DNA from: Escherichia phage vB_EcoM_MM02
Reading direction: 5' to 3' (one strand)
Sequence record: MK373784.1
DNA: 64,000 nt
This document shows, piece by piece, positions 2,227-33,170 of the stretch (positions are counted from its first letter, which is position 1; each line of letters begins with the position of its first letter). A model generated the notes under the pieces. The model worked only from the letters and a program-made list of their open reading frames with translations, did not search any database and was not told where the DNA came from. Made by a program: the position numbers and the translations under genes.

Positions 2227-2427
2227 TCACAAGTTACGTTTAAAAATTTCTGCTACTTCAAGAAGTTCTTCTTTAGTAGCTGTATCGGTTTGTATTTTAT
2301 ATCGAATTTCTTTAAAGCGTTCTTTAAAGGACTCTGCTGATTCGATATCAAAAAATCTTTGGATAAGCCGGAATTCCCGGAGCACTGCTTTATCAAAAAG
2401 TTCCAAGTCCACGTTATATGTTCTCAT
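2227..2427 (-). CDS. small hypothetical protein (rIIA.1 position)
   Basis: 66-aa ORF immediately upstream of rIIA on the same strand; synteny only. Confidence 0.4.
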   Translation of the reverse strand: MRTYNVDLELFDKAVLREFRLIQRFFDIESAESFKERFKEIRYKIQTDTATKEELLEVAEIFKRNL

Positions 2428-2519: not shown

Positions 2520-3620
2520 TTACGCTGTGAAGATTTTATCCCACATCGCAACAACTGCATCTCGGTTATACTTCTTCCATACGGCTTCAGCACGTTTAAC
2601 TCGAGCTTCGTATGTGTCAGTGAATTCTAATACAGCTTTTGTGTAAAGCGCAACTACTTCTTTCTTAGGAGTAGAGGAATCAATTTCTACCCGCACAGTA
2701 TCTGGGTCGTATTCGAATGTCGCGTGCGGATAATCCTTAAAAACTAACTGGATTACAGGGACACCTTTAGAGATGGCTTCAATAGAACTATTCTCTACCG
2801 TACCTGTGTCAGGACACGTATTAATAAGTGCTTTAGCTGTTTTAAGACGTTCCATGATTTCACTGTGTGGAGCATCAATAATAACAGGATATTTAGCCGG
2901 TGGTGCCCATTTGCTTGGACAATAACCAATACCATTTTCGCCTAGTGCTTTAATCGCTTCAAGAGCAACATCAGTACGACGCATTTTAGTGTCATAACGT
3001 TGTGCACTAATAATCAGATCCGTCGCCGGAAGAACTTCTGGCTTTTCAGTCAAACAAATAACCGGATAATCTTCGGCTTCAAACAACGGATTTGCTCGCC
3101 AATAATCATAATCAATTTTGTCAGTCAGACCTGAAGTCATATAACAATATTTACGTTCAAATTCACGGAAGGCTTTAGTAGGAGCATAACTCTTACCACC
3201 GTTCTTACGAATTTGAATAGTCTGGTCCCAAATTTGAACAATGCCACGAGATACCGGTTCAAATGGTGTTGCCATAAAATTCTTATGAACTTTAGAGAGA
3301 CCTGCGTCTTTAATTGCCTGAACGGTTAGTTTAGTCGGTTCCATAGTAACAACAAAATCGTATTCATGGATGCCGGCTAGTTCAACAATCTTACGAGCCA
3401 TAGTATAACTCATACCTAGACTGAATTTAGTCAGATGACCAACAGGATGATGATTAACCTTCCAATCACCAAATGTGTCATTATCAAAACCGATATAATC
3501 GATATCAGCACCGATGGACACAAGATATTTCAACACATTTAAATGTACTGCTTCAAGACCACCTTGTACACGTTCTGGGTTAAATGGGACTGCACGAGAT
3601 GGGATAAACATAACTTTCAT
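2520..3620 (-). CDS. putative GT-B fold glycosyltransferase (candidate DNA hmC sugar transferase)
   Basis: 366 aa. N-terminus MKVMFIPSR...GGLEAVHLNVLKYL and C-terminal TGTVENSSIEAISKGVPVI resemble the two conserved GT4/GT-B segments (N-terminal Rossmann start and the E-x7-E region). Not present at this position in T4. Confidence 0.5.
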   Translation of the reverse strand: MKVMFIPSRAVPFNPERVQGGLEAVHLNVLKYLVSIGADIDYIGFDNDTFGDWKVNHHPVGHLTKFSLGMSYTMARKIVELAGIHEYDFVVTMEPTKLTVQAIKDAGLSKVHKNFMATPFEPVSRGIVQIWDQTIQIRKNGGKSYAPTKAFREFERKYCYMTSGLTDKIDYDYWRANPLFEAEDYPVICLTEKPEVLPATDLIISAQRYDTKMRRTDVALEAIKALGENGIGYCPSKWAPPAKYPVIIDAPHSEIMERLKTAKALINTCPDTGTVENSSIEAISKGVPVIQLVFKDYPHATFEYDPDTVRVEIDSSTPKKEVVALYTKAVLEFTDTYEARVKRAEAVWKKYNRDAVVAMWDKIFTA

Positions 3621-3635
3621 AATTAAGCCTTATTA

Positions 3636-3664
3636 AAATTAAAATGAAGCTCCCGAAGGAGCTT
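3636..3664 (-). terminator. hairpin with UUCG loop and U-rich tail at the end of gene 39
   Basis: aagctcc cgaa ggagctt overlapping the gene 39 stop; followed on the minus strand by CAUUUUAAUUUU. Confidence 0.4.
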
Positions 3665-5480
3665 AGGACATCCATTCTTTACGAAGTTCTGAATCATCAC
3701 CCATCAACATTTCAAAGAGTTCTTTCCAATTTTCAGGAAGTTTAACTACGTCGTACACAGGGTTCTGAATCATTTCACGATATTCTGACTTTTCAAGGGA
3801 GCCTAATCCCTTGATGTATCGAATACTATGCTTAGGCAGTGTATCTTTAACTTCTTCATACTCAGCTACAGTATAAAACCATTTTTGAGCTTTGCCAATT
3901 TGTGCAATAATTACAGGTGTTTTAACAAAGCGAATACGTCCTTGTTCAAACAATTCAGGCCAATTACTAAAGAAAGCAAGCAAAGCCGGATAGATACTTC
4001 CAAGACCGTCATGATCGGCATCGGTCATAATTGCAATATTACGATAGTTCGTATTCTCTGCCTTTTCACCAAGAATAAGACCCGTGATAGCACAGATATC
4101 AAAGAGCTCTTTGTTCTTCATCATATCAGCATATGACATACCCCAGCTATTCATCACCTTACCACGTAATGGGAATCCGCCGTGTAGTTCACGGTCACGA
4201 ACATCAATGAGATAACCAATTGCCGAATCACCTTCTGTTAAAAACAATGTCGTATCTGCATCTTTACCACATTGGTTAGCTTTAATATGCTTATGAACCT
4301 TAGCTTTAGTTGCCTTTTTAGCTGCTTTAGTTTCTGCAGCCTTTTCTGCTGCCAATTTACGAGCTAATGCTGCTTCAACAATAGGCATAATCAAGGCTTC
4401 GTTTTTAAGAAGTGCCTGAGCAATTTTCTTAGCATCTAATTGGATATGATTACGAATATCACCATACGTTGACGTTAAACGTTCTTTAGTCTGAGAATCA
4501 AAACGCATGTTGCTCATGTCTCTAATAAACATCAACATTGTGAGACATTCTTTAACACGAGCTTTAGTGACTTCAATACCCTTATATTTCTTTTTAATAC
4601 CAGGCAAAAGATGTTCACAGATATCATCCATTACACATTCAACATGATGACCACCATTTTTAGTATGGATGTTATTCACATAAGTTAAATGACGGAAGCC
4701 ATCTGGTGATGTTGTGAATGCTATAGAGACTTTATCATTTTCTTGAATGATGTTATCTTCACCAAATTGTTTAGCAAATCGTTTAAAATTACCATCAACC
4801 TTTTTACCATTAAATGTGAACTTGATATCAGGATAAACGACTGCCAATGTTTGAAGTCGGTCTAAAGTAATATCTAAATAAATTTGAGATAAATTATGCT
4901 CTTCAAATGAAGAGAAATCAGGAGTGAAGATTACTTTAGTGCCTTTACCTTTAGATTTCTTAGAAGACCATGATTTGTTTTCCATTCCGTTTGAACAGTT
5001 AACAGTGATTTCATTTTCGCCATCTGACGTGATGCCTGTAAACAACGTAGAGAAGATATTAGTTAAACTACTCCCGACGCCGTTCATACCACCAGTCTTG
5101 CGTTCAGAATCATCACCAAAGTTACCACCAGCCTTTGGAATAGTCCAGGCTGCTACAGGTCCAGGAATTTGTTCACCTGTTTGGTCGGTAACTAAACCTT
5201 GAGGAATACCACGTCCGTTATCTTCCACCGAAACTTGATTATTTTTAATTTGCACATCAATTTTATTTGCAAACTTAAATGATGTACGAATAGCTTCATC
5301 AACCGAGTTGTCAATAATCTCATCGATTAATTTAACCAGACCAGGAACATATTCAACTTGTTGATATTTACCAAACAAAAAACGCTCGTGGGCTTCTTTA
5401 GCCGAAGAACCAATATACATACCACTACGTTTCTTAATATGTTCTACATCTGACAATACCTTAATTTCATTTTTAATCAT
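3663..5480 (-). CDS. 39: DNA topoisomerase II large subunit (GyrB-like ATPase + TOPRIM), continuous 39-type gene
   Basis: 605 aa; GHKL ATPase motif VEDNGRGIP, TOPRIM motifs LTEGDSA and IMTDADHDG; single uninterrupted ORF. Confidence 0.9.
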   Translation of the reverse strand: MIKNEIKVLSDVEHIKKRSGMYIGSSAKEAHERFLFGKYQQVEYVPGLVKLIDEIIDNSVDEAIRTSFKFANKIDVQIKNNQVSVEDNGRGIPQGLVTDQTGEQIPGPVAAWTIPKAGGNFGDDSERKTGGMNGVGSSLTNIFSTLFTGITSDGENEITVNCSNGMENKSWSSKKSKGKGTKVIFTPDFSSFEEHNLSQIYLDITLDRLQTLAVVYPDIKFTFNGKKVDGNFKRFAKQFGEDNIIQENDKVSIAFTTSPDGFRHLTYVNNIHTKNGGHHVECVMDDICEHLLPGIKKKYKGIEVTKARVKECLTMLMFIRDMSNMRFDSQTKERLTSTYGDIRNHIQLDAKKIAQALLKNEALIMPIVEAALARKLAAEKAAETKAAKKATKAKVHKHIKANQCGKDADTTLFLTEGDSAIGYLIDVRDRELHGGFPLRGKVMNSWGMSYADMMKNKELFDICAITGLILGEKAENTNYRNIAIMTDADHDGLGSIYPALLAFFSNWPELFEQGRIRFVKTPVIIAQIGKAQKWFYTVAEYEEVKDTLPKHSIRYIKGLGSLEKSEYREMIQNPVYDVVKLPENWKELFEMLMGDDSELRKEWMS

Positions 5481-22260: not shown

Positions 22261-22623
22261 TTAAAAGAATTTAAATTTTTTCTTGGTCCGTTCATTAAAA
22301 GCTTGTTGTACTTGCATTGTAACACATTTTTCAACATGTGGTGCAAGTTCTGCTTTTCTGTCCTGGTCAAGAACTGCAAAGTCCATTACGATTTTACCAT
22401 CAACCCAGTCTAGTTTTGTAATATAGACTATATGATGGGAACCGTCTTCAAGTGTAATCAGAATCTCTTGAATGACATTTTCCATTGCTGAACGGACAAT
22501 TTTAAGAGATTCATTAAACACTCGTTCTTTGCGAATGTCCTCCCCTTCCGAAGAAGGGGATTCATCAACGATTTCTAGATTTAAATCATCGAGATTATTC
22601 ATCGAAATCTTCCATTTCGTCAA
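22261..22623 (-). CDS. hypothetical protein (gene 40 position)
   Basis: 120 aa, between 41 and uvsX as T4 gene 40; no motif. Confidence 0.4.
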   Translation of the reverse strand: MTKWKISMNNLDDLNLEIVDESPSSEGEDIRKERVFNESLKIVRSAMENVIQEILITLEDGSHHIVYITKLDWVDGKIVMDFAVLDQDRKAELAPHVEKCVTMQVQQAFNERTKKKFKFF

Positions 22624-23767
22624 GGTCGTTTTCTATATCTGCTGCAGATGGAGCATCAGAAGTTTTAACCGGAACTTTAGTTGTTGCTTTGCAATTAATA
22701 AGGTCATTAACAGCGTCATCAACTTCTTTAATAGAAGAGATAGCACCTAGTTTATATTTAGTTTCAATTGCGTCACGGAAAGGTTTGTGTTTAAACAAAG
22801 GTCCCCAGAATTCTACACAATCAGTAGCTTTAGCACGCCATGATTTTTCTTCACGAATCATTTCACCTGTTTCTTCGTCAAGGAATTCGCGAGCATACCA
22901 ACCGGCTTTAGGCTTAACTACAAAACCAATTTCAGTTGCCATTTCTAACAAGCCACTGAATGGGTCAATACCGCCATCAAAATTAACCGTGATCGGGAAA
23001 GTAGATTTCTCTTTAACTGTGCGAGATTTTTCTGCTTTCAACGTGAAGTCATAACCGGTCAATTCTGTACCTTCTTTAACCTGACGTTTAGAGATAAAGA
23101 ATACAGTGTTAGCAGAGTAAAGAATACCTGTACCACCACCCATAATCTCTTTAGGATATAGTCCGCCGATTTCCATTGCGGTATGGTTAATTGCAACACA
23201 CGGAATATCTTTAATAGTCAGATACGGGGTCACAATGCGGAACAGAGATTTAAGTGCCTTAGCACGAGACATATCACCTACAACTTTCTCGTTCAACGCA
23301 TCTTCGGTTTCTTTCTTAGATGCAGTATTACCGATTGAATCGATAAAGATAATAACTTTATCACCGCGTTCAATCGCGTCAAGCTGATTAGTCATATCAA
23401 CTTTAAGTTGTTCGACAGATTGAATCGGAGTATGAACTACACGGTCTAAATCAACACCCATTGAACGAAAATAAGATTCTGAAGCACCGAATTCTGAGTC
23501 ATAAAACAAACAGATTGCATCTTTATATTTCTTCATATATGCTGCAACCATGGTCAGCCCAAACAATGTTTTAAAGTGTTTAGAAGGAGCAGCAAAAATA
23601 GTTAAGCCTGATTGCAACCCGGCATTCAGTGCACCACCTAGTGCAATATTCAACATCGGAATACGAGTAGGGACTTCATCACGATTATTAAACAGCTTAG
23701 ACTTAGTCAAGTCTGCAGTCATTTTAGAAGTAGAAGCTTTAATCAGACGAGATTTTAAATCAGACAT
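22595..23767 (-). CDS. uvsX: UvsX recombinase (RecA/Rad51 family)
   Basis: 390 aa; RecA-like core with P-loop GLTIFAAPSKHFKT; size and synteny. Confidence 0.9.
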   Translation of the reverse strand: MSDLKSRLIKASTSKMTADLTKSKLFNNRDEVPTRIPMLNIALGGALNAGLQSGLTIFAAPSKHFKTLFGLTMVAAYMKKYKDAICLFYDSEFGASESYFRSMGVDLDRVVHTPIQSVEQLKVDMTNQLDAIERGDKVIIFIDSIGNTASKKETEDALNEKVVGDMSRAKALKSLFRIVTPYLTIKDIPCVAINHTAMEIGGLYPKEIMGGGTGILYSANTVFFISKRQVKEGTELTGYDFTLKAEKSRTVKEKSTFPITVNFDGGIDPFSGLLEMATEIGFVVKPKAGWYAREFLDEETGEMIREEKSWRAKATDCVEFWGPLFKHKPFRDAIETKYKLGAISSIKEVDDAVNDLINCKATTKVPVKTSDAPSAADIENDLDEMEDFDE

Positions 23768-23865: not shown

Positions 23866-24414
23866 TTAACGAGCCCATTTGATAATTTCTGTAATCAAAT
23901 AATTACGTTCGCTTGCATTAAATCCTATAACTTTGTTAGCACCATCATGATTAAGTAATTGATACGTTTGGATTTTGTTATGAATTGCAAACTCTTCAAA
24001 ATGTGAAATGACTGTATTAAAACCGAATGAAGACAAAGTAATAAGGTCGTCTTCAAAACTTTCAGTCATTTCGTTACGTGTTAAAATAATTGTGAACACA
24101 TCATGGTTTTGGCAAAGACGAACATAATCCTGTTCATAAACGTCAAGAACCGAGTCCGTATCTTGTCGAATACGTCCATAAACCCAGTTACTAATATATC
24201 CACGGTCTAACAGATAAATCTTAGTAGGGTCTAAATAATTCAACATCGTTTCGAAGCAGCCAACTTCATTTCGAGACTTAACATCGAAACGCCCATCAAC
24301 TGTTCGTTTAGGGAAATCAATCTTTACATATCTTTCACTAATTTCCATTATGTCATTAATGAAAGTTGTTTTACCAGCATTATCTGGGCCATCTACTAAA
24401 ATAATTTTAGCCAT
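23866..24414 (-). CDS. P-loop kinase (nucleoside/nucleotide or sugar kinase-like)
   Basis: 182 aa; Walker A ILVDGPDNAGKTT and LDRGY motif as in dNK/TMPK or gluconate/shikimate-kinase-type P-loop kinases; occupies the T4 beta-gt slot. Confidence 0.5.
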   Translation of the reverse strand: MAKIILVDGPDNAGKTTFINDIMEISERYVKIDFPKRTVDGRFDVKSRNEVGCFETMLNYLDPTKIYLLDRGYISNWVYGRIRQDTDSVLDVYEQDYVRLCQNHDVFTIILTRNEMTESFEDDLITLSSFGFNTVISHFEEFAIHNKIQTYQLLNHDGANKVIGFNASERNYLITEIIKWAR

Positions 24415-24415
24415 T

Positions 24416-25315
24416 TTATTCCTCGATTACGACATCTTCATATTTAGGTATATTATACGGCGAAGAAATTAAAGCATTAAAGTAGATGAACTCACCAAGA
24501 CCTGGATGGAATACTTCTTCAGGATTTTCGAAATATTGAATCTTCGGACGTCCTTTAAGAATTTGATAGTACTCAGTTTTAGTTGGTTTAAAAATTCGAA
24601 TCAGCGCTTCTTCAGGATACTTATTTCTGTCGAAGCTATTATTTGGATCGGTTATATAAAGCGGTTGACCTAATTGAATTGCGCATTCAACAACTTGTTC
24701 AAAACGATAGCATGGGTCACTAATTCGAAATGGATGAAAAATACCATCTAGATAAATAGGAGCCAAATCACCTACAAGACGCTGCATGATGGAAGGACGT
24801 ATAACTTTCTGCGTTACGATAATCTTATTACCATCTGCACCTGCGTTAACCAGCACTTCTTTTTGACGTTCATTCAACACAGTAGTTTGAAGTGAACGAT
24901 TAACCGACAACATATCAGTTTTTAAGAATTCGTCAATATAAAAACGTGGTTTATTAGGGTCTGCAGTGATATTGAAATTGAATTCCACATCAAAAGCGCC
25001 GTCATATCCAGTGATATCTGTGATTAGAAAATCACAATCATAATAAGCAATTAATGAATCAACTACAAATTCATTTTCAGACCAGAAATATTTACGAGTG
25101 TTATACGCGTTATCTTTATACCATAATGGAACAAACTTAAATTCTGGAAAAAGACGTTCGCATTCTTTAATATCAGATGCATTACGTGGATATGTAATCA
25201 CATCACCCGGATTAGCACGGTGCAAATGAAGTTGGAAGTTGCCATCCTTAAGGATAGCATACTGTCCAGTTTCATAAGACCGCATACTCAAGATTGGTAC
25301 GCGGAAAATAGCCAT
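24416..25315 (-). CDS. hypothetical protein (beta-gt slot, no similarity recognised)
   Basis: 299 aa; translationally coupled with neighbours. Confidence 0.4.
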   Translation of the reverse strand: MAIFRVPILSMRSYETGQYAILKDGNFQLHLHRANPGDVITYPRNASDIKECERLFPEFKFVPLWYKDNAYNTRKYFWSENEFVVDSLIAYYDCDFLITDITGYDGAFDVEFNFNITADPNKPRFYIDEFLKTDMLSVNRSLQTTVLNERQKEVLVNAGADGNKIIVTQKVIRPSIMQRLVGDLAPIYLDGIFHPFRISDPCYRFEQVVECAIQLGQPLYITDPNNSFDRNKYPEEALIRIFKPTKTEYYQILKGRPKIQYFENPEEVFHPGLGEFIYFNALISSPYNIPKYEDVVIEE

Positions 25316-26031
25316 TAGTCAAGGAATCCTTTAACATAATCAAAATCACGTTCAAACACATGGGCACTTACCATGGTATGAGTATAAACACCAACTTCTA
25401 CACCGCATTCGTTAGCGATATAATGAAGTAATTTTCCTTGGAGATAAAAATCCAACTGCATAACAACAGCACAGTTCTGGGAACGCATATGACAGTGGGT
25501 ATAAAGCTTACCATCACGAATATAATAAGTCACTGAGTCAGTACATGGATATTCAAGCGTTTCGTCCGAATCAAGCAAAGCCTGATCAGAACTTTCTAGA
25601 ATTTGGAACACAACTCTTCGAGAGTTAGGCTTCTCTTTAAGTTCTTTTAGAAGAGCTGGTAATTGGGCCACAATGCGAGGACCATAGAAAGTGTTGAAGT
25701 TCGCCGGCAAAACATCTGATTTTGGTTTAGAAATAAATTTAGCGACATTAGGATATGCCTTAAACGCTTCTTCTGCATCAGTACCACCAGAAATCATAAA
25801 CTTCCAGAAGTCTTCGGCATATTCATAAGAGATGCGGTTAATACGTGGGTCGGTCATTTTGAATGATGATGGAGTGTCAACAACTACTGTCATAGACCCA
25901 ATTTCATTACAACGTCCAATACGAGAATCAGTTACGAATTCCGGGTTTTCTAAAATTTCACGATTGACTGCTTTAAATGCGGTTTGAAAATCTGCGGCTT
26001 TGATATATTTCATTGTGTTATGTTTTCCCAT
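25315..26031 (-). CDS. 42: dCMP hydroxymethylase (thymidylate-synthase fold), gene 42
   Basis: 238 aa; TS-family features (...LEYPCTDSV... with candidate catalytic Cys, C-terminal HVFERDFDYV); size and position as T4 gp42. Confidence 0.7.
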   Translation of the reverse strand: MGKHNTMKYIKAADFQTAFKAVNREILENPEFVTDSRIGRCNEIGSMTVVVDTPSSFKMTDPRINRISYEYAEDFWKFMISGGTDAEEAFKAYPNVAKFISKPKSDVLPANFNTFYGPRIVAQLPALLKELKEKPNSRRVVFQILESSDQALLDSDETLEYPCTDSVTYYIRDGKLYTHCHMRSQNCAVVMQLDFYLQGKLLHYIANECGVEVGVYTHTMVSAHVFERDFDYVKGFLD

Positions 26032-26073: not shown

Positions 26074-26313
26074 TTATTTGAATTTCTTGACAATGTTGAT
26101 ATAACGTAAAGCTTCAGCATCGATACTTCCAAGAACACTATGAAGAAATGCATCAGCGTAGTATTCCAATTGAACAGGTTCTTTAATCACTTTAGCCGCT
26201 TTGGTTTCAAACAGGCCCATCAGGGCCTTTTTAAGAATTTGTTCGTTAGTGTTCAGTTTAATAGTCAAAATCTCTTCATTAAGTTGGTGGTTAAAAGTTT
26301 TTCTAGAAATCAT
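26074..26313 (-). CDS. hypothetical protein
   Basis: 79-aa ORF. Confidence 0.35.
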   Translation of the reverse strand: MISRKTFNHQLNEEILTIKLNTNEQILKKALMGLFETKAAKVIKEPVQLEYYADAFLHSVLGSIDAEALRYINIVKKFK

Positions 26314-27488
26314 TCCGGGTACCTCAAAGCGTCATCAGAGTTAGTTATATCAATAATAGATATAGAGTTTTCTGCTAACCCGTTTTTAGACAATTGACGT
26401 TTATAATATCTTTCACAATATGTACACGTCGTCCCGCAGATTTCATTAGCACAATCGAAATCTGGATGTCTGAACCACCTTTTTTCTAAAAAGCCATCTA
26501 ACAAAGAGGTTTCAATATTTACTGTATGTGAAAACTCAGTTTCGTTTTCAAGAGTGAAAATAGTCTCTAAAGGCTTCCACAGTTCTAACAAATTACCTTC
26601 AAACTTTTCAGAAGCGTATGCTTCAAGAACTTTCAAAATGTAGTCTGTGCTACCTGTACGTCCTGAAACTTTGAATTGAGTGATACCAATATCATTATAA
26701 AGTTTCAAATCTTGAGGACGAACAAAACGAGTTCTCAACCAGTTAAATGGGTCTGTATCACGAGCTTTAATACAGTGCTGCATTGGATAACCGTTTAAGG
26801 ATTTAGCATCGTCAGCTGTAACATCAGTACTATGGAAAATATAGCAAGAGTCACGATAGCTACAATGTGTTGTATACCCTTTACCAGCATTAGAACAGAA
26901 CTCATTTACAAGAACTTCAAATATTATATTGTTCTTATTGCAAAACTCTGCTGCACGCTTCAGGAAAGAAACTGAACGGTTCTTATGAATTCCGCAGCAG
27001 ACCTTTTTGATATTATATTGGTCATGCAAGTATTTGATTTGAGTTACAGCATCGACATGTAGAATTGTTGAAACTTCAATCTCAATATCTTTATTGACTT
27101 CACGAACAATTTCCATAACAACAGGGTTAGCGATAGTAATACGCCATACGCCTATTGACCAAAGATACTGAACATAATCCTGAATAGCTTTCTTCTTCCA
27201 CTCAACTAGTTCTCTTTTTGAACCAGGATTTATCGTGTTGAGTGTATAGTTAAAGCAAATACCTAATTCGTTACAACGTTTAACGTAGTCTTCTAACATC
27301 TTTTTGTCAACGTCAGGAAGCCTAAAATCAGGTCTGGCTGCTACAAAAGCCATTTTTCTTGTAGAGCCGTATACTTCGTTTATCAAGCTATTAGGATAAG
27401 TTTTATTGAGCTCTACGATTTTATCAAGAAGAGCTAAATCAAAATTCGTTCCAATTTTAAAAGTATTCATTTTTTTTTTGCATCTCAC
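26310..27488 (-). CDS. Cys-rich protein of unknown function with C-terminal CxxxCxxC cluster
   Basis: 392 aa; cysteines at ...EFCSNAGKGYTTHCSYRDSC... and C-terminal CANEICGTTCTYC; family not assignable from sequence alone. Confidence 0.45.
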   Translation of the reverse strand: MRCKKKMNTFKIGTNFDLALLDKIVELNKTYPNSLINEVYGSTRKMAFVAARPDFRLPDVDKKMLEDYVKRCNELGICFNYTLNTINPGSKRELVEWKKKAIQDYVQYLWSIGVWRITIANPVVMEIVREVNKDIEIEVSTILHVDAVTQIKYLHDQYNIKKVCCGIHKNRSVSFLKRAAEFCNKNNIIFEVLVNEFCSNAGKGYTTHCSYRDSCYIFHSTDVTADDAKSLNGYPMQHCIKARDTDPFNWLRTRFVRPQDLKLYNDIGITQFKVSGRTGSTDYILKVLEAYASEKFEGNLLELWKPLETIFTLENETEFSHTVNIETSLLDGFLEKRWFRHPDFDCANEICGTTCTYCERYYKRQLSKNGLAENSISIIDITNSDDALRYPE

Positions 27489-27529: not shown

Positions 27530-27931
27530 TTATAGATTAGGTTTATATGATTTAAATGTTTCGAATCCGCCTTTATTCATAAGAGCTTTGAATTCGTCAG
27601 GACGCATAGCTTTGTCGTCGATAATCCAATCATATACTGGTTTATGTGTTAGCAAATTATGGTACTTCAAACCAATGTTTTCCAAGTTCTGAATCAGACT
27701 TGGGAGAATGTCAATTGCTATACGTCCAGGACCTACTGACTTCATACCGCGAGCAGTGTAAAGCGTTATGGTATGCCCTGCATCATACAGGGCATTAATG
27801 GCAGACACCATTTCGACGTCCGGTTTGAAGTTCACGTAATCACGATTGTTATTCCACTCTGTTATACAATCATCGACATCAAAACAAAGATTAAGCATGT
27901 TTTCTACACGGTGCATTAGATTCGTTCCCAT
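27530..27931 (-). CDS. HAD-superfamily phosphatase (KdsC-like small sugar-phosphate phosphatase)
   Basis: 133 aa; motif I FDVDDCIT (DxDx[T/V]), Thr motif ITLYTAR, C-terminal K...DD (HKPVYDWIIDDK). Confidence 0.55.
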   Translation of the reverse strand: MGTNLMHRVENMLNLCFDVDDCITEWNNNRDYVNFKPDVEMVSAINALYDAGHTITLYTARGMKSVGPGRIAIDILPSLIQNLENIGLKYHNLLTHKPVYDWIIDDKAMRPDEFKALMNKGGFETFKSYKPNL

Positions 27932-29601
27932 TGATGAGTGATATCGCCACCGATTGGACGATAGGAAACACCAGTTTCTTTATCAGTTAGTACCCATTTA
28001 CCAGGATTTTTTGTAATCAGAGTAGCCGTTACAGGTTCTGCTACGTCATAACTAATAGAGCCGTCTTGAAGTACACGGCCCATGTTACGTAATTGCTTAG
28101 TCAGAAGTTCCATACCTTTATAATATGCGGCTACCGCTTTAAGTGGATTATTCTTGAAATAACCACCTAATGCAATCCAGATAATTGCTACAGCCAAATG
28201 ATGATACTCGTTAAACGAACTCATCTTTCCATATTTGTAAACTAATGGATTGATGTTAATAGTCACATTACAAGTTGTTTCGTCAATAGTAAACTGTCCC
28301 CAGGTCGGATTAGCGTTGAATTCATCATAACCTGAAACAGCATAAAGCACTTTAGCTTCATCATACAATTTTGGCCCATAAATCTTGGTTTCGCCAAAAT
28401 ATCCACGAGGGTCGATAAACTTGACTTCGCCGTTATCAGTAATCATAGTATTACTGAAGTTCGGGTCACCATGAATAACAGAGTACTGTCCCTGAGAACG
28501 GTTATGATAACGAATAAGGTGTTCTAAAGCTTGTTTCAACATTGGCTTCAGACGTCCAATCTTAGTGTAGTTCACATGTGTGATTTTACCAAATGAATCA
28601 ATCAATGGTTGAATGCTTTCACAACGATCAATAACTTTCGTATAGAATTCTTTAGTGAAATCACGACGAACAGTTTCAGGACTTACAAAATAAGTGTCTG
28701 TGCTGAATTTCAGTGCATCTAAAATTGCATCAACAATTTGTGGACGAGCAAGACTTGATTTGGATTTAATATATTCAAATGCCGGCTTACCTTTAATGCG
28801 TTCCATTTCAAAGTTATTTTCATTAACAGAAACTAACTGAGGAACTGAATCTGATTTCACTTTAAGATACCATGAAATCTCATCTTTCTGAAGAGCTCGA
28901 CCCTGTTCGGTTAATGCGAATTTAGTTACAGTTTCTTCACCAATTTCAACTGCATTAAAACTACGATTAAGTTCACGAACTTCATGAGCTTTTTCAAGTT
29001 TAGGCATATCACCTAAATCAATTAGATTCATAAGCTCTGATTTATTGAATGCGCTGCCGTAAAGGAATTCTACGAAATCGCGTCCTTTGCAGTATTCATG
29101 AATTTCCTCATCGGTAGAACCCATATAGAATTCCCAGTCTTTGAACTGATAAATTCCTACAACATTACCACCTGTTGAACCTACGTTAGTGATATTTTCA
29201 CCGTCGAAATTATATCGACATTCGTCACCCTTAACATAGATTGCGTTAACATTCCAAGACCATGAACCAAAATCGGGAATAATATCACACCAGTTAACAA
29301 TTACATTATGGCCGTCTAAATCTTTGTGTAATTTAGCAAGAGCATAAGCAGAACCGTACGCTTCATCAACTGTACGAATAGTCACATTGAACCCTTCTTG
29401 CTCACAATAAGCTCGAACAGTTTCAGCAAATTTTGAATGAACTACTACAATAATTTCATCTGCGCCAAGGTCAGAATAAATTGTATACAAATTGCTCAGA
29501 ATAGTGTCTTGTTTATAGTTAACAAGCACCTTAGGAATATGATGCGTTATTGGATATAAACGAGTCGCCAGTCCAGCACCAAGAATAACAGCTTTTTTCA
29601 T
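27916..29601 (-). CDS. bifunctional sugar-1-phosphate nucleotidyltransferase / anomeric sugar kinase (APH-like)
   Basis: 561 aa; N-terminal NTP-transferase signature AVILGAGLATRLYP; C-terminal kinase motifs HGDPNFSNTMI...FIDPRG (Brenner HxDxxxxN plus DFG-like), as in AmgK/NahK-type kinases. Confidence 0.65.
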   Translation of the reverse strand: MKKAVILGAGLATRLYPITHHIPKVLVNYKQDTILSNLYTIYSDLGADEIIVVVHSKFAETVRAYCEQEGFNVTIRTVDEAYGSAYALAKLHKDLDGHNVIVNWCDIIPDFGSWSWNVNAIYVKGDECRYNFDGENITNVGSTGGNVVGIYQFKDWEFYMGSTDEEIHEYCKGRDFVEFLYGSAFNKSELMNLIDLGDMPKLEKAHEVRELNRSFNAVEIGEETVTKFALTEQGRALQKDEISWYLKVKSDSVPQLVSVNENNFEMERIKGKPAFEYIKSKSSLARPQIVDAILDALKFSTDTYFVSPETVRRDFTKEFYTKVIDRCESIQPLIDSFGKITHVNYTKIGRLKPMLKQALEHLIRYHNRSQGQYSVIHGDPNFSNTMITDNGEVKFIDPRGYFGETKIYGPKLYDEAKVLYAVSGYDEFNANPTWGQFTIDETTCNVTININPLVYKYGKMSSFNEYHHLAVAIIWIALGGYFKNNPLKAVAAYYKGMELLTKQLRNMGRVLQDGSISYDVAEPVTATLITKNPGKWVLTDKETGVSYRPIGGDITHQWERI

Positions 29602-29782: not shown

Positions 29783-30418
29783 TCATTGTTCGCCTCGTAA
29801 CATGGCACCTAGTGCACCGCCTGGATGGAACTTAAGGAAATCATTAGAGGTAAATCCACGTTCAGACGAAAGGTTGATAGCGAACGTATCGATAAGCGCT
29901 AACAACAATGTAGTAGACATTGTCGGAGCTAAAGAGTTCTCGTCAACTTCTACCGCGATACCGGTGCAGAACGTATAATCAAAAAGAGCTTCGTATTCTT
30001 GTGGAATGTCAGGGTTACAATGTAACAGAATCTGTTTAACCTGAGGACGAATCATACGAAGATGTTTAGCAACACCTATCATTTCTTCAGTCTTACCAGA
30101 ACGACTGATGTGAACTAATACATCATTAGGTGCAATAAATCCTGCGTCACCATGAGAATAATGCCCGGTGTTCAAATACATGCTAGGAATACCTAGTGAA
30201 GCAAAAGTCTCGGAAGCTTTAGTTGCGATATTAGCATTCTTACCAACACCTGTAATAATTACCCGGCTTTCATAATTACTAAGTCCAGGGCGTCGAAGAG
30301 TTTCTAGAATAGCATTATAACGAGCAGGGTTTTGACTAATTACTTTAGCCATAGTGGCAAGAGATGAAGCTTGTTTTACGATTGCGTCAATAGCGATAGT
30401 AATAGGAGTAGTTTTCAT
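29783..30418 (-). CDS. SIS-domain sugar-phosphate isomerase (arabinose-5-phosphate isomerase KdsD/GutQ-like)
   Basis: 211 aa; SIS motifs ITGVGKNANIATKASETFASLGIP and HISRSGKTEE; no CBS domains. Confidence 0.7.
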   Translation of the reverse strand: MKTTPITIAIDAIVKQASSLATMAKVISQNPARYNAILETLRRPGLSNYESRVIITGVGKNANIATKASETFASLGIPSMYLNTGHYSHGDAGFIAPNDVLVHISRSGKTEEMIGVAKHLRMIRPQVKQILLHCNPDIPQEYEALFDYTFCTGIAVEVDENSLAPTMSTTLLLALIDTFAINLSSERGFTSNDFLKFHPGGALGAMLRGEQ

Positions 30419-30458: not shown

Positions 30459-33170
30459 TCAAAAATCAAACATATCGAACAGAGATGCTTTCTTCTCGTA
30501 ATCGAGTTTAGCTGCTGATGTGAATCCTTCAAGTGGTTTAATAAATGTCTTCTCAAGGAGAACAGTGTAGTCCATCCAATGAAGTACATCGTCTTTAATT
30601 AAATCTGTGATTTCAGTACCAGAAGGCCATGCGATACATTTATCACCGAATGGGTTTCCTTCACGTAAAGGCAGAACATATACTTTTTCACCTTCTACAA
30701 CTTGTGGTGCATCAATATTACCTTTGATAGCTCGGTTATATGTCAGAATTCCACGAATATGGAACGGACATTTAGGACCAGGGAATCCACCGACATCATA
30801 TTTAGCAATGTTATTCGCAGAAGATACCGACGCGATGCTAATATAATTCAATTGACGGAATTCTTTTTCAAACTCTTTAAAATATTCTTGTAATGATTCT
30901 TCACCTTCTTGAAGCATACGACGAATACATTCTTTAAGAGCTTTCTGTACTGCTTTAGGGGTCGAAGATTTCTGAGTCTCTAGACCCATGATTTTGAGTT
31001 TAGGCTCAGCGTAACGAGTGCCTTCCATATCCCACACGTTTAATGCATAACGTTTCTTACCAGTCCAGAATCCACCAATACCTTTAGAACCGAGCGGAGG
31101 ACCAGCGATAGCTTCTCGGTCCATGAACATTAAGTGTTGTTTATTGTTCATGTATTCACACATTTCACGGAAACCTTTATCAATAGCAGGTTCCATACGT
31201 TCACGTGCAAACTTATCTAAGAAGTCTACCCAATGGTTGGTATCACGGAATTTAGATTCACCAACCTTATCAATAATTTTATCCGCAGATACGTAAATGG
31301 AGTCTGTATCACCATAAAGAACGAAAGCTTCACCTTCTGTACCACAAACTTCATTCAGATATTCATTAACTTTACGTTCAATCCACTGTAAAGCCATTTG
31401 CCCGAATGTTGTGATTGCAGTAGCATTACGCAAATCATAATAACGGAACCAAACGTTGCCAAGTGCACCATAAAGTGAGTTGATGAGCAATTTACGGTTA
31501 ATTTGTGCAGTCATACCTGCAACTTCAGTACGTTGAGCTCTAAACAACATTTCATTAAGAGATTTAGCAGACAACTTTTTAATCTTTTCTTTAATCTCAT
31601 CGCTGAAGTCGAAACGATAATCAACATCTAATGGTTCGTCAACAGAAAGATTAGGATTATGCAATGCCTCTTTAATTATTTCACCATTACGTTGAGCTGC
31701 AAGCATGTAACCTTTATGTTCTTTACGTTGATTAAAGACCTTAGTGATTTCAGTTGGAACTACACCATCACGGTCTTTATAATACATCATGCCGTTAGGA
31801 GAACAACTGTACACATCTGAAGGACGTTCAGCGATTGCGTTAATATAATCATGTAATGGAGCTACTTTAAACGTTCCTGCTATTGTTTCTGGGCTAATAT
31901 TCACTTGGCGAATGATGCTTGGATACAGAGATGTAAGGTCGAAACTCATTACATATTTGTATCGATTTGGAATAGGTTCCTTAACAAAAGCGCCAGGATA
32001 AGGTTGAACCGGGTGAGAACGACCTTGTGGAATCACCTTGTTCTGCTCTTTAAGGCTATTAAAAATAATAGCATCCCATGTTTTAATTGGGCTAAACACA
32101 GATTGAATCTGTATCTTAGCATAATAACCCATGTCCAAACTCAAGTTGATGAACTGACGCTTAGCATCAATTTGCAATACACGATACACATCGATAATGT
32201 TATAAGAAATATATCGTTGGTGATTGCTTTCACGAAGTTTAGAAATAGGGCCGTCATATTTCAGTTTACCAACGTTCAATTCAAATTCTGAAATGTAATC
32301 CAGAGAATACGACGGTTGATTGGTAAAAGAGAATTTTTTGTAAAGGTCAATGTAATCAAGAACAGAGATACCGAACAATGTAATGATTTCACGAGAACCA
32401 TACATGTTTTCGATAACTTTAACACGAGTTTTACGATGCGGCGATAAACGTTTCGCAGTAGATTCGCCAAAAATATTCTTGATTCGGTTATACACATATG
32501 GAATATCAAATGACTCAACGTTCCATCCAGTCAAAATGACAGGAGTTTTCTGTTGCCAGAAGTTGAGATATTCCATCAACAATTCTTTTTCGTTATCGAA
32601 CGGCATATAAATGATTTTATCGATAATTTCAGATGGAACTTCATCACCGCCTTGTTCTTGAAGCTTAGCAGCGATTTCAATAGACCATTCTTCTACATTA
32701 CCATATGGAGAATTCAATAGATCAAATACGTAGAACCTGTCGTCAATTGAGTCATAATGGGTGATAGCATCAATCGGATGTTTTGCTTGTGACGGCTCAG
32801 GGAACCCGTCCGGAGATGTTACTTCGATGTCGAAGTTAGCCACACGAATTTTTGTATGGTCGTATTTGATTTCATAGTTATAAGTGTCAGACAAATACGC
32901 CAATTTGAAATCGTCCATGCCAAGTGCTTCAAGTCCGATATCTTCCATGCGTTTAATCCATTGGGAGGCATCACGCATATTAGCGAACAACTTACGAGTA
33001 CACGGCTTACCGTAGATATCGAAATATTTCGTAGCCTGACTTTCCGGACAATGAGCAAACAGTGATGGTTTATATTCTACTTCACGAGTACGTTCACGGC
33101 CATTAGAATCGATGTAACGTTCAAAAATTGAATCACCAATCTGTTCAACCGTTAAGTAAAATTCTTTCAT
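30459..33170 (-). CDS. 43: family B DNA polymerase with 3'-5' exonuclease, gene 43
   Basis: 903 aa; Exo motifs FDIEV, YNIIDVY; Pol motifs DFTSLYPSII, KILINSLYGALG, YGDTDS; sequence matches my memory of the RB69-type polymerase. Confidence 0.97.
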   Translation of the reverse strand: MKEFYLTVEQIGDSIFERYIDSNGRERTREVEYKPSLFAHCPESQATKYFDIYGKPCTRKLFANMRDASQWIKRMEDIGLEALGMDDFKLAYLSDTYNYEIKYDHTKIRVANFDIEVTSPDGFPEPSQAKHPIDAITHYDSIDDRFYVFDLLNSPYGNVEEWSIEIAAKLQEQGGDEVPSEIIDKIIYMPFDNEKELLMEYLNFWQQKTPVILTGWNVESFDIPYVYNRIKNIFGESTAKRLSPHRKTRVKVIENMYGSREIITLFGISVLDYIDLYKKFSFTNQPSYSLDYISEFELNVGKLKYDGPISKLRESNHQRYISYNIIDVYRVLQIDAKRQFINLSLDMGYYAKIQIQSVFSPIKTWDAIIFNSLKEQNKVIPQGRSHPVQPYPGAFVKEPIPNRYKYVMSFDLTSLYPSIIRQVNISPETIAGTFKVAPLHDYINAIAERPSDVYSCSPNGMMYYKDRDGVVPTEITKVFNQRKEHKGYMLAAQRNGEIIKEALHNPNLSVDEPLDVDYRFDFSDEIKEKIKKLSAKSLNEMLFRAQRTEVAGMTAQINRKLLINSLYGALGNVWFRYYDLRNATAITTFGQMALQWIERKVNEYLNEVCGTEGEAFVLYGDTDSIYVSADKIIDKVGESKFRDTNHWVDFLDKFARERMEPAIDKGFREMCEYMNNKQHLMFMDREAIAGPPLGSKGIGGFWTGKKRYALNVWDMEGTRYAEPKLKIMGLETQKSSTPKAVQKALKECIRRMLQEGEESLQEYFKEFEKEFRQLNYISIASVSSANNIAKYDVGGFPGPKCPFHIRGILTYNRAIKGNIDAPQVVEGEKVYVLPLREGNPFGDKCIAWPSGTEITDLIKDDVLHWMDYTVLLEKTFIKPLEGFTSAAKLDYEKKASLFDMFDF

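Follow-up and report, generated by a model that had tools for sequence, protein, structure and literature searches.

What does a putative glycosyltransferase do between rIIA.1 and gene 39, in a slot where phage T4 carries gene 60, 60.1 and mobA? The question is raised by a 64,000-nucleotide stretch of Escherichia phage vB_EcoM_MM02 (sequence record MK373784.1; the whole stretch is called the window below), in which a 366-residue open reading frame (ORF; 2520..3620, minus strand) fills this slot. A sequence-only reading had described the ORF as a GT-B-type enzyme in a place that T4 does not use for a glycosyltransferase, and as the best candidate for the enzyme that puts a non-glucose sugar on 5-hydroxymethylcytosine (hmC) in the DNA. 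The position and the fold are borne out here. We consider it probable that the ORF encodes a uridine diphosphate (UDP)-sugar GT-B glycosyltransferase that works on phage DNA and adds a second arabinofuranose to a first sugar carried by 5-hydroxycytosine. As a candidate for the sugar on the base itself it gives way to a second GT-B glycosyltransferase of 299 residues (24416..25315, minus strand), which that reading had overlooked and which is proposed to be the first, base-proximal (alpha) arabinosyltransferase. This second enzyme corresponds to RB69 gp46:47 (intact here) and to gp79 of the Acinetobacter phage DLP3; its gene lies 21 kb from that of the 366-residue enzyme, in the place that beta-gt has in T4, and the homologue of gene 42 is immediately upstream of it. 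The T4 alpha-gt and beta-gt genes themselves have no sequence homologue anywhere in the window (tblastn, all expectation values, E, > 1), as the earlier reading had held.

Judged from its sequence, the 366-residue ORF is a genuine gene and not a chance ORF, because it matches PHROG 8302 over residues 1-366 (E 2.5e-221), has full-length homologues of 34-43% identity in Acinetobacter phages and metagenomes, and shows an excess of synonymous changes against its orthologue in Shigella phage JK45 (25 synonymous and four non-synonymous codon differences). The four substitutions (E16D, N56T, R138H and I231V) hit no position that is invariant in the family. The ORF has an ATG start, is the only one there in the ORF listing, and contains both peptides quoted in the sequence-only reading, the N-terminal MKVMFIPSR...GGLEAVHLNVL and, at residues 272-290, TGTVENSSIEAISKGVPVI. 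It is flanked by rIIA.1 (2227..2427, minus strand) and by gene 39 for a topoisomerase subunit (3663..5480, minus strand), within an early-gene block of the same orientation. A hairpin with a UUCG-type loop, AAGCTCCTTCGGGAGCTT (3647..3664, minus strand), overlaps the gene 39 stop codon and is followed by a putative AAGG ribosome-binding site ∼8 nt before the ATG at 3620; the hairpin was found by a consensus scan and in the sequence, which is pattern evidence only, and the two elements together form a putative intergenic signal upstream of the ORF. The locus is 95-99% identical to ∼160 Mosigvirus (RB69-like) genomes, the closest of which is that of phage vB_Eco_NicPhage (98.5% identity over the first 25 kb of the window), and 155 Mosigvirus-type records have at least 95% protein identity to the ORF. 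The slot between rIIA.1 and gene 39 is kept in the records inspected. The ORF is a member of the Mosigvirus gp3/RB69 ORF003c orthologous group (PHROG 8302).

The enzyme is already known from the literature, from GenBank annotation and from the PDB. Its orthologues are RB69 ORF003c/gp3 (NP_861693.1), the glycosyltransferase of phage HY126 and Bas46_0103, which is labelled 'putative hmC-arabinosyltransferase' in the Bas46 GenBank record; a handful of substitutions separate them from the ORF, all outside the positions that are invariant in the family. Thomas et al. 2018 (PMC6024577) used custom hidden Markov models (HMMs), HHpred and Phyre2 to describe RB69 ORF003c (366 residues) as a likely arabinosyltransferase with a GT-B fold, and assigned donor binding to G20, R207 and E281. 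In the scheme of Lee et al. 2026 (PMC13326640, Nucleic Acids Research), RB69 gp46:47 is the proposed first (alpha) transferase and gp3 the proposed 'beta-arabinosyltransferase 2'. The Bas46 transposon-mutagenesis preprint gives the chemistry but no gene-level essentiality data for the orthologue of the 366-residue ORF.

The AlphaFold2 model of the 366-residue protein has a mean predicted local distance difference test score (pLDDT) of 90.4 and shows the architecture expected of a GT-B fold, a pair of Rossmann-like alpha/beta domains separated by a cleft that houses the nucleotide-sugar site. The protein is 97-98% identical to the 'phage HY126 glycosyltransferase' of PDB entries 9IQZ (apo) and 9IR0 (with UDP), which were released on 2025-07-16. 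The paper behind these entries is reportedly He et al., Nat Chem Biol 2026. All of the other structural neighbours given by Foldseek are nucleotide-sugar GT-B enzymes, and no non-glycosyltransferase fold was seen. Binding of UDP by the phage protein thus has strong indirect support, as the 98% identical protein was solved with UDP in entry 9IR0. Because of the chain label 'H', we also asked whether 9IQZ contains a second protein, such as a defence protein, in complex with the transferase; this was rejected, as Foldseek gives chain A of both entries and their titles name the glycosyltransferase only.

Curated models do not recognize the ORF as a GT4 enzyme: the Pfam scan gave no match at E ≤ 10, the NCBIfam scan gave no match, and only one of the 11 family members has a Pfam match to GT4-conflict, which is weak (E 0.0028). 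The family is small: clustering at 90% identity gives 10 groups, and a search of 1.84 billion proteins found 26 representatives (E ≤ 0.001). The link to GT4 was found by an exhaustive profile search together with hhalign. The family profile retrieves further full-length proteins at E values of 1e-14 to 1e-5, eight of the ten scanned carry both Pfam Glyco_transf_4 and Glycos_transf_1, and hhalign aligns the family with these GT4-type proteins over 357 co-linear columns (99.8% probability, E 2.6e-30). The family is thus connected to GT4 through profiles and intermediate sequences, and the enzyme appears to be a very divergent offshoot of the GT4-type enzymes, a soluble two-domain GT-B protein. 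In the profile alignment, G20-G21-x-E23 corresponds to the GT4 'GGxE' loop, R208 and R214 to the GT4 Arg/Lys pair and E281 to the second Glu of the GT4 E-x7-E motif. The earlier reading had seen an E-x7-E-like donor-binding segment here. The second Glu is indeed conserved; the first is replaced by T272/G273, and the E-x7-E spacing is absent. E276, which is invariant in the family, lies 3-4 residues past T272/G273 and five before E281 and aligns with the Gly of 'ETFG', so that the conserved pair of the phage enzyme reads E-x4-E (E276 and E281) and that of the GT4-type relatives E-TFGxxxF-E. T118 aligns with an invariant His of these relatives. The mapped GGxE, R208/R214, T118, E276 and E281 positions are invariant in the 366-residue ORF, DLP3 gp77, DLP3 gp76 and two metagenomic relatives.

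Which base carries the sugar can be read from the thymidylate-synthase-family enzyme encoded in the window (238 residues; 25315..26031, minus strand; RB69 gp48; Pfam Thymidylat_synt, E 4.5e-15). In an alignment, Asp171 of T4 gp42, in an 'RSxD' motif, is replaced by Asn in this ThyA homologue and in DLP3 gp80, and the Asp at T4 D179 is kept in all three proteins. From the conserved motif and the ThyA numbering, we take T4 D171 to be D169 of E. coli ThyA. DLP3 gp80 is an experimentally confirmed synthase of 5-hydroxydeoxycytidine monophosphate (5hodCMP), and Lee et al. regard the Asp-to-Asn change (E. coli ThyA D169N) as a predictive signature of such synthases (PMC13326640). Because the Asn/Asp pattern is identical to that of DLP3 gp80, the window homologue predicts 5-hydroxycytosine and not hmC. 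This is consistent with the chemistry of the close relatives. The RB69 base is arabinosylated 5-hydroxycytosine, not hmC; a ThyA homologue that depends on flavin and O2 introduces its 5-hydroxyl at the dCMP stage, and the RB69 product was determined by nuclear magnetic resonance (NMR) as beta-D-Araf-(1->3)-alpha-D-Araf-O5-dC (PMC13326640; Araf, arabinofuranose; dC, deoxycytidine). NicPhage DNA contains 5-ara-dC and 5-ara-ara-dC at a ratio of ∼1:4, with the sugar on C5 directly through oxygen (PMC13390438). The DNA of RB69, Bas46 and NicPhage has up to two arabinoses, that of Thanatos and LC53 has one, and that of DLP3 has three, the third in a beta-(1->5) linkage (PMC13326640). The pathway in the earlier proposal therefore stands, a transferase for a non-glucose sugar on a modified cytosine; the base is 5-hydroxycytosine and the step is probably that of the second sugar, not the first.

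The assignment to the second sugar is favoured because three independent lines point to it: the nested distribution of the two transferase families, a gene count that tracks the sugar count, and linkage together with biochemistry. Co-occurrence was counted by tblastn in a phage collection (E ≤ 1e-3), so that these counts are sequence-level and correlational. The distribution check that the sequence-only reading had asked for gives 348 phage records (at least 138 sequence clusters) with the 299-residue transferase and 211 with the 366-residue family. The former come from Escherichia, Klebsiella, Serratia, Enterobacter, Proteus, Yersinia, Edwardsiella, Shewanella and Acinetobacter phages; they include the mono-arabinosylated Thanatos and six records with Serratia sp. 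ATCC 39006, the host of LC53, the presence of LC53 itself in the collection being unconfirmed. The 211 records comprise ∼155 Mosigvirus with one copy, 55 Acinetobacter phages with matches in two places each and one Tegunavirus. The same collection yielded no match to the family from Shewanella or Serratia phages, nor, apart from the one 'Tegunavirus' record, from Klebsiella, Proteus or Yersinia phages. By these correlational counts the family is essentially confined to phages whose cytosines carry two or three arabinoses, where it accompanies the base-proximal transferase and the genes for 5-hydroxycytosine and UDP-Araf, and its copies follow the arabinoses: none for one sugar (Thanatos), one for two (Mosigvirus) and two for three (Acinetobacter phages). 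In DLP1 and DLP3 the two paralogues of the family directly follow the cluster kinase, and in a metagenomic phage a homologue of the 366-residue protein overlaps the start of a gene of the 299-residue family (48% identical). The homologue in the 'Tegunavirus' record has <60% identity, and other Yersinia-type phages carry the 299-residue transferase only.

The biochemistry comes from DLP3, whose gp76 and gp77 together transfer a third arabinose from UDP-Araf onto RB69 DNA in vitro (PMC13326640). The 366-residue ORF is 42.6% identical to gp77 and 40% identical to gp76 over the full length, and by this likeness (40-43% identity) we propose for it a DNA arabinosyl-elongating activity. The NMR structure of the RB69 product therefore defines its likely reaction. 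In the pathway that we envisage, cytosine would be replaced by 5-hydroxycytosine, produced as a nucleotide by the ThyA-like enzyme, and UDP-D-arabinofuranose would be supplied by the module beside gene 43. The 299-residue transferase would place the first arabinose, in the alpha configuration, on O5 of the base, and the 366-residue enzyme would add the second arabinofuranose, beta-(1->3), to this first sugar. The product would be beta-D-Araf-(1->3)-alpha-D-Araf-O5-dC, whose extra sugar would give the DNA stronger protection from host nucleases. An 'Aat' deletion in Bas46 that reportedly leaves the phage viable but sensitized to a defence system (Mahler et al. 2025) would fit such an accessory step, provided that 'Aat' is the orthologous gene. 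The ground for this proposal is the fold, UDP binding by the 98% identical orthologue, the end-product chemistry in near-identical phages and the elongating activity of gp76 with gp77; that the 366-residue protein itself carries out the second-sugar step, and that it does so alone, is what we infer.

Several points weigh against this assignment. No single DLP3 transferase was active alone in vitro, gp76 and gp77 each needing the other (PMC13326640), and because these were inactive singly, a partner requirement is possible for the 366-residue enzyme by analogy. Since gp76 and gp77 are 58% identical to each other and only 40-43% identical to the 366-residue ORF, the Acinetobacter duplication appears to be lineage-specific, and the linkage specificity of its products may not simply be transferable. 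As the first sugar is alpha and the second beta from the same donor, one enzyme must retain and the other invert, although both have retaining relatives; the fold neighbours of the 366- and 299-residue proteins are mostly retaining enzymes. The co-occurrence evidence is, as noted, correlational. Setting Mahler et al. 2025 and He et al. 2026 aside, the accessible literature holds no direct assay of the 366-residue protein or of RB69 gp3, and the second-transferase role of gp3 is a proposal only in the Nucleic Acids Research paper (PMC13326640).

If the 366-residue protein were the primary, base-proximal transferase that places the first arabinose on the modified cytosine, the 299-residue protein would have to do something else. 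The 366-residue family was the sole candidate of the HMM methods in 2018 (Thomas et al., PMC6024577), its canonical-sized GT-B fold and the UDP binding of the near-identical orthologue would suit such a role, and no single DLP3 glycosyltransferase, including gp79 of the 299-residue family, was active on 5-hydroxycytosine DNA in vitro (PMC13326640). We nevertheless find this quite unlikely: the family is undetected in the singly arabinosylated Thanatos and in the Serratia, Klebsiella, Proteus and Yersinia phages (one 'Tegunavirus' aside), all of which have the 299-residue transferase, family copies of 0, 1 and 2 follow sugars of 1, 2 and 3, and the DLP3 paralogues work on DNA that is already arabinosylated (PMC13326640). 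The inactivity of single DLP3 proteins bears equally on a protein that is competent only within a complex, either with the 299-residue transferase or as a homo-oligomer on DNA, as gp76 and gp77 were singly inactive even though RB69 DNA already bears the di-arabinosyl acceptor (PMC13326640). With a chain labelled H, the crystal entry must contain eight chains or more, which would fit an oligomer; many chains in a crystal are no proof of a functional one, the PDB titles name a single protein, and Mosigvirus has only one family member, 21 kb from the 299-residue gene. A strict dependence on a complex is therefore improbable in our view.

A different division of labour would have the first arabinose added at the nucleotide level: the 299-residue transferase would act on 5-hydroxy-dCMP, the adjacent kinase would phosphorylate the product and the polymerase would incorporate it, leaving the 366-residue protein as the only true post-replicative DNA glycosyltransferase of the phage. 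The unusual active site (first Glu lost, E276 shifted, Thr for His) might then have been shaped by a furanosyl donor and by an acceptor sugar that is carried on DNA. Whether the first sugar is added before or after replication is not distinguishable according to Lee et al. (PMC13326640), and we hold the two ideas, taken jointly, as a speculative and rather unlikely picture. A target other than DNA, in line with the closest structural neighbours of the 366-residue protein, would be for example host lipopolysaccharide, the cell wall or a protein; we regard this as very improbable. Addition of the second arabinofuranose to arabinosylated 5-hydroxycytosine in DNA remains the reading that we prefer.

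Some records of the locus depart from the common arrangement. Gene 39 of the window is undivided (605 residues; 3663-5480, minus strand), whereas in T4 the subunit is encoded by two genes, 39 and 60, that are separated by 60.1 and mobA; the place of the T4 gene 60/mobA insertion is taken here by the 366-residue transferase. Shigella phage JK45 (NC_054940.1, 621-1031; positions ∼2412-2912 of the window), which is classed as Tequatrovirus yet has a Mosigvirus-like locus, has a tandem duplication of ∼500 bp that creates an extra 136-residue ORF, in which the first five residues of rIIA.1 (MRTYN) are fused to transferase residues 237-366; the duplication may be real or an assembly artefact. In Escherichia phage LH01 (PP434429.1, 301-1400) a 1-nt deletion splits the transferase gene into annotated ORFs of 274 and 58 residues; either the sequencing is at fault or the phage has naturally lost the second-sugar step. 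A protein of 394 residues, the family member furthest from the 366-residue ORF (34% identity), is encoded on JGI metagenome contig Ga0489998_000752 (3040-4224), which comes from a T4-like phage; its gene follows DNA ligase and DsbA-like genes there. This third genomic location suggests that the gene moves between plasticity regions.

The sugar-nucleotide module that the earlier reading had placed near gene 43 was found between gene 43 (30459..33170) and uvsX (22595..23767), so that all of the genes for 5-hydroxycytosine and UDP-Araf are in the window; the module genes, given here in the direction of transcription, are on the minus strand. Next to gene 43 lies a SIS-domain arabinose-5-phosphate isomerase (211 residues; 29783..30418; RB69 gp55; Pfam SIS, E 8.2e-10; assignment from PMC13326640). 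It is followed by a bifunctional nucleoside diphosphate-sugar pyrophosphorylase/sugar kinase (561 residues; 27916..29601; RB69 gp52:53) with Pfam NTP_transferase and kinase-like matches, and by a HAD-like sugar phosphatase (133 residues; 27530..27931; RB69 gp51) with a match to an NCBIfam capsule-biosynthesis phosphatase (E 2.2e-13). These two are analogous to AfhE and AfhF of HY126, respectively, and the first of them makes UDP-arabinofuranose (assignments from PMC13326640). A peptidase-U32-family protein with a C-terminal Cys cluster (392 residues; 26310..27488; RB69 gp50; Pfam U32, E 7.7e-11; weak UbiU match) and a 79-residue ORF (26074..26313; equivalent to RB69 ORF049c) precede the ThyA homologue and the 299-residue transferase. 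A nucleotide-kinase-like protein (182 residues; 23866..24414; RB69 gp45, DLP3 gp78; weak dTMP-kinase match; assignment from Table 1 of PMC13326640) comes last.

The U32-family gene of this module (26310-27488, minus strand) may have a role of its own. It has at least 80% identity in all 221 matching phage records, including 82% in Shewanella phage Thanatos-2, and every host listed for these phages belongs to Enterobacterales or Shewanella; the matches include no Acinetobacter record, and the two Acinetobacter phages inspected lack the gene in their clusters. The Cys cluster of the protein has the form CX5CX3CX2C. Between the U32 gene and the homologue of the ThyA-like 5hodCMP synthase, 56 related phages encode a type II chorismate mutase; that of Entb_45 matches Pfam CM_2 at 40.9 bits (compare region L010, 5013-6421). 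The 79-residue ORF of the window was considered as a chorismate mutase like its positional counterpart in Entb_45 and rejected, as it has no similarity to it and no Pfam match. The U32 protein RlhA is needed for 5-hydroxycytidine in E. coli 23S rRNA and is prephenate- and Fe-S cluster-dependent (PMC5727448). Because of this precedent, the Cys cluster, the chorismate mutase neighbour and the host range, we suggest by analogy that the U32 gene may provide an O2-independent, prephenate-dependent route to 5-hydroxycytosine that complements the O2-dependent ThyA-like enzyme in phages of facultative anaerobes. In the accessible literature the gene is labelled only as a 'sugar or heterocycle reductase', and a connection between U32, prephenate and 5-hydroxycytosine is not made; the Bas46 record labels what is apparently the same gene as a 'putative enzyme involved in UDP-arabinose biosynthesis'.

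The hypermodification of DNA with arabinosylated 5-hydroxycytosine, clarified only recently, occurs in T4-like phages, among them many candidates for therapy against E. coli and Acinetobacter. Arabinosylation protects the DNA from restriction enzymes, CRISPR-Cas and DNA glycosylases and exposes it to type IV systems. As the number of sugars affects the protection, mapping genes to sugars makes the modification state predictable from the genome. Knowledge of the 366-residue ORF is already largely in the literature and the PDB; what is gained here is the correction of the 'hmC transferase' reading to a second transferase on 5-hydroxycytosine, the recognition of the second GT-B enzyme and the documented kinship to GT4.

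Among known systems, the bacterial GT4-type retaining glycosyltransferases (BshA, PimA, MshA, WaaG and sucrose-phosphate synthase) differ from the phage ORF in that the latter is undetected by Pfam and NCBIfam directly. They have the first Glu of E-x7-E and the invariant His where the phage enzyme has T272/G273 and T118, along with the family-specific E276, and they differ in acceptor, which for the phage enzyme is proposed to be DNA. The 366-residue ORF shows no detectable sequence similarity to the T4 GT72 and GT63 glucosyltransferases. T4 alpha-glucosyltransferase (GT72; PDB entry 1Y6F) has 9% sequence identity to it, no BLAST similarity and a different genomic slot; it transfers glucose, not the arabinofuranose proposed here, to the hydroxymethyl group of hmC, whereas the acceptor of the 366-residue enzyme is most likely O3 of a DNA-borne arabinose. 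DLP3 gp77 and gp76 belong to the same family, conserve all of the key residues and use UDP-Araf and arabinosylated DNA as substrates. They differ in being two tandem paralogues inside the modification cluster, where MM02 has one copy 21 kb away, and in their product, a third sugar in a beta-(1->5) linkage that Mosigvirus DNA does not carry.
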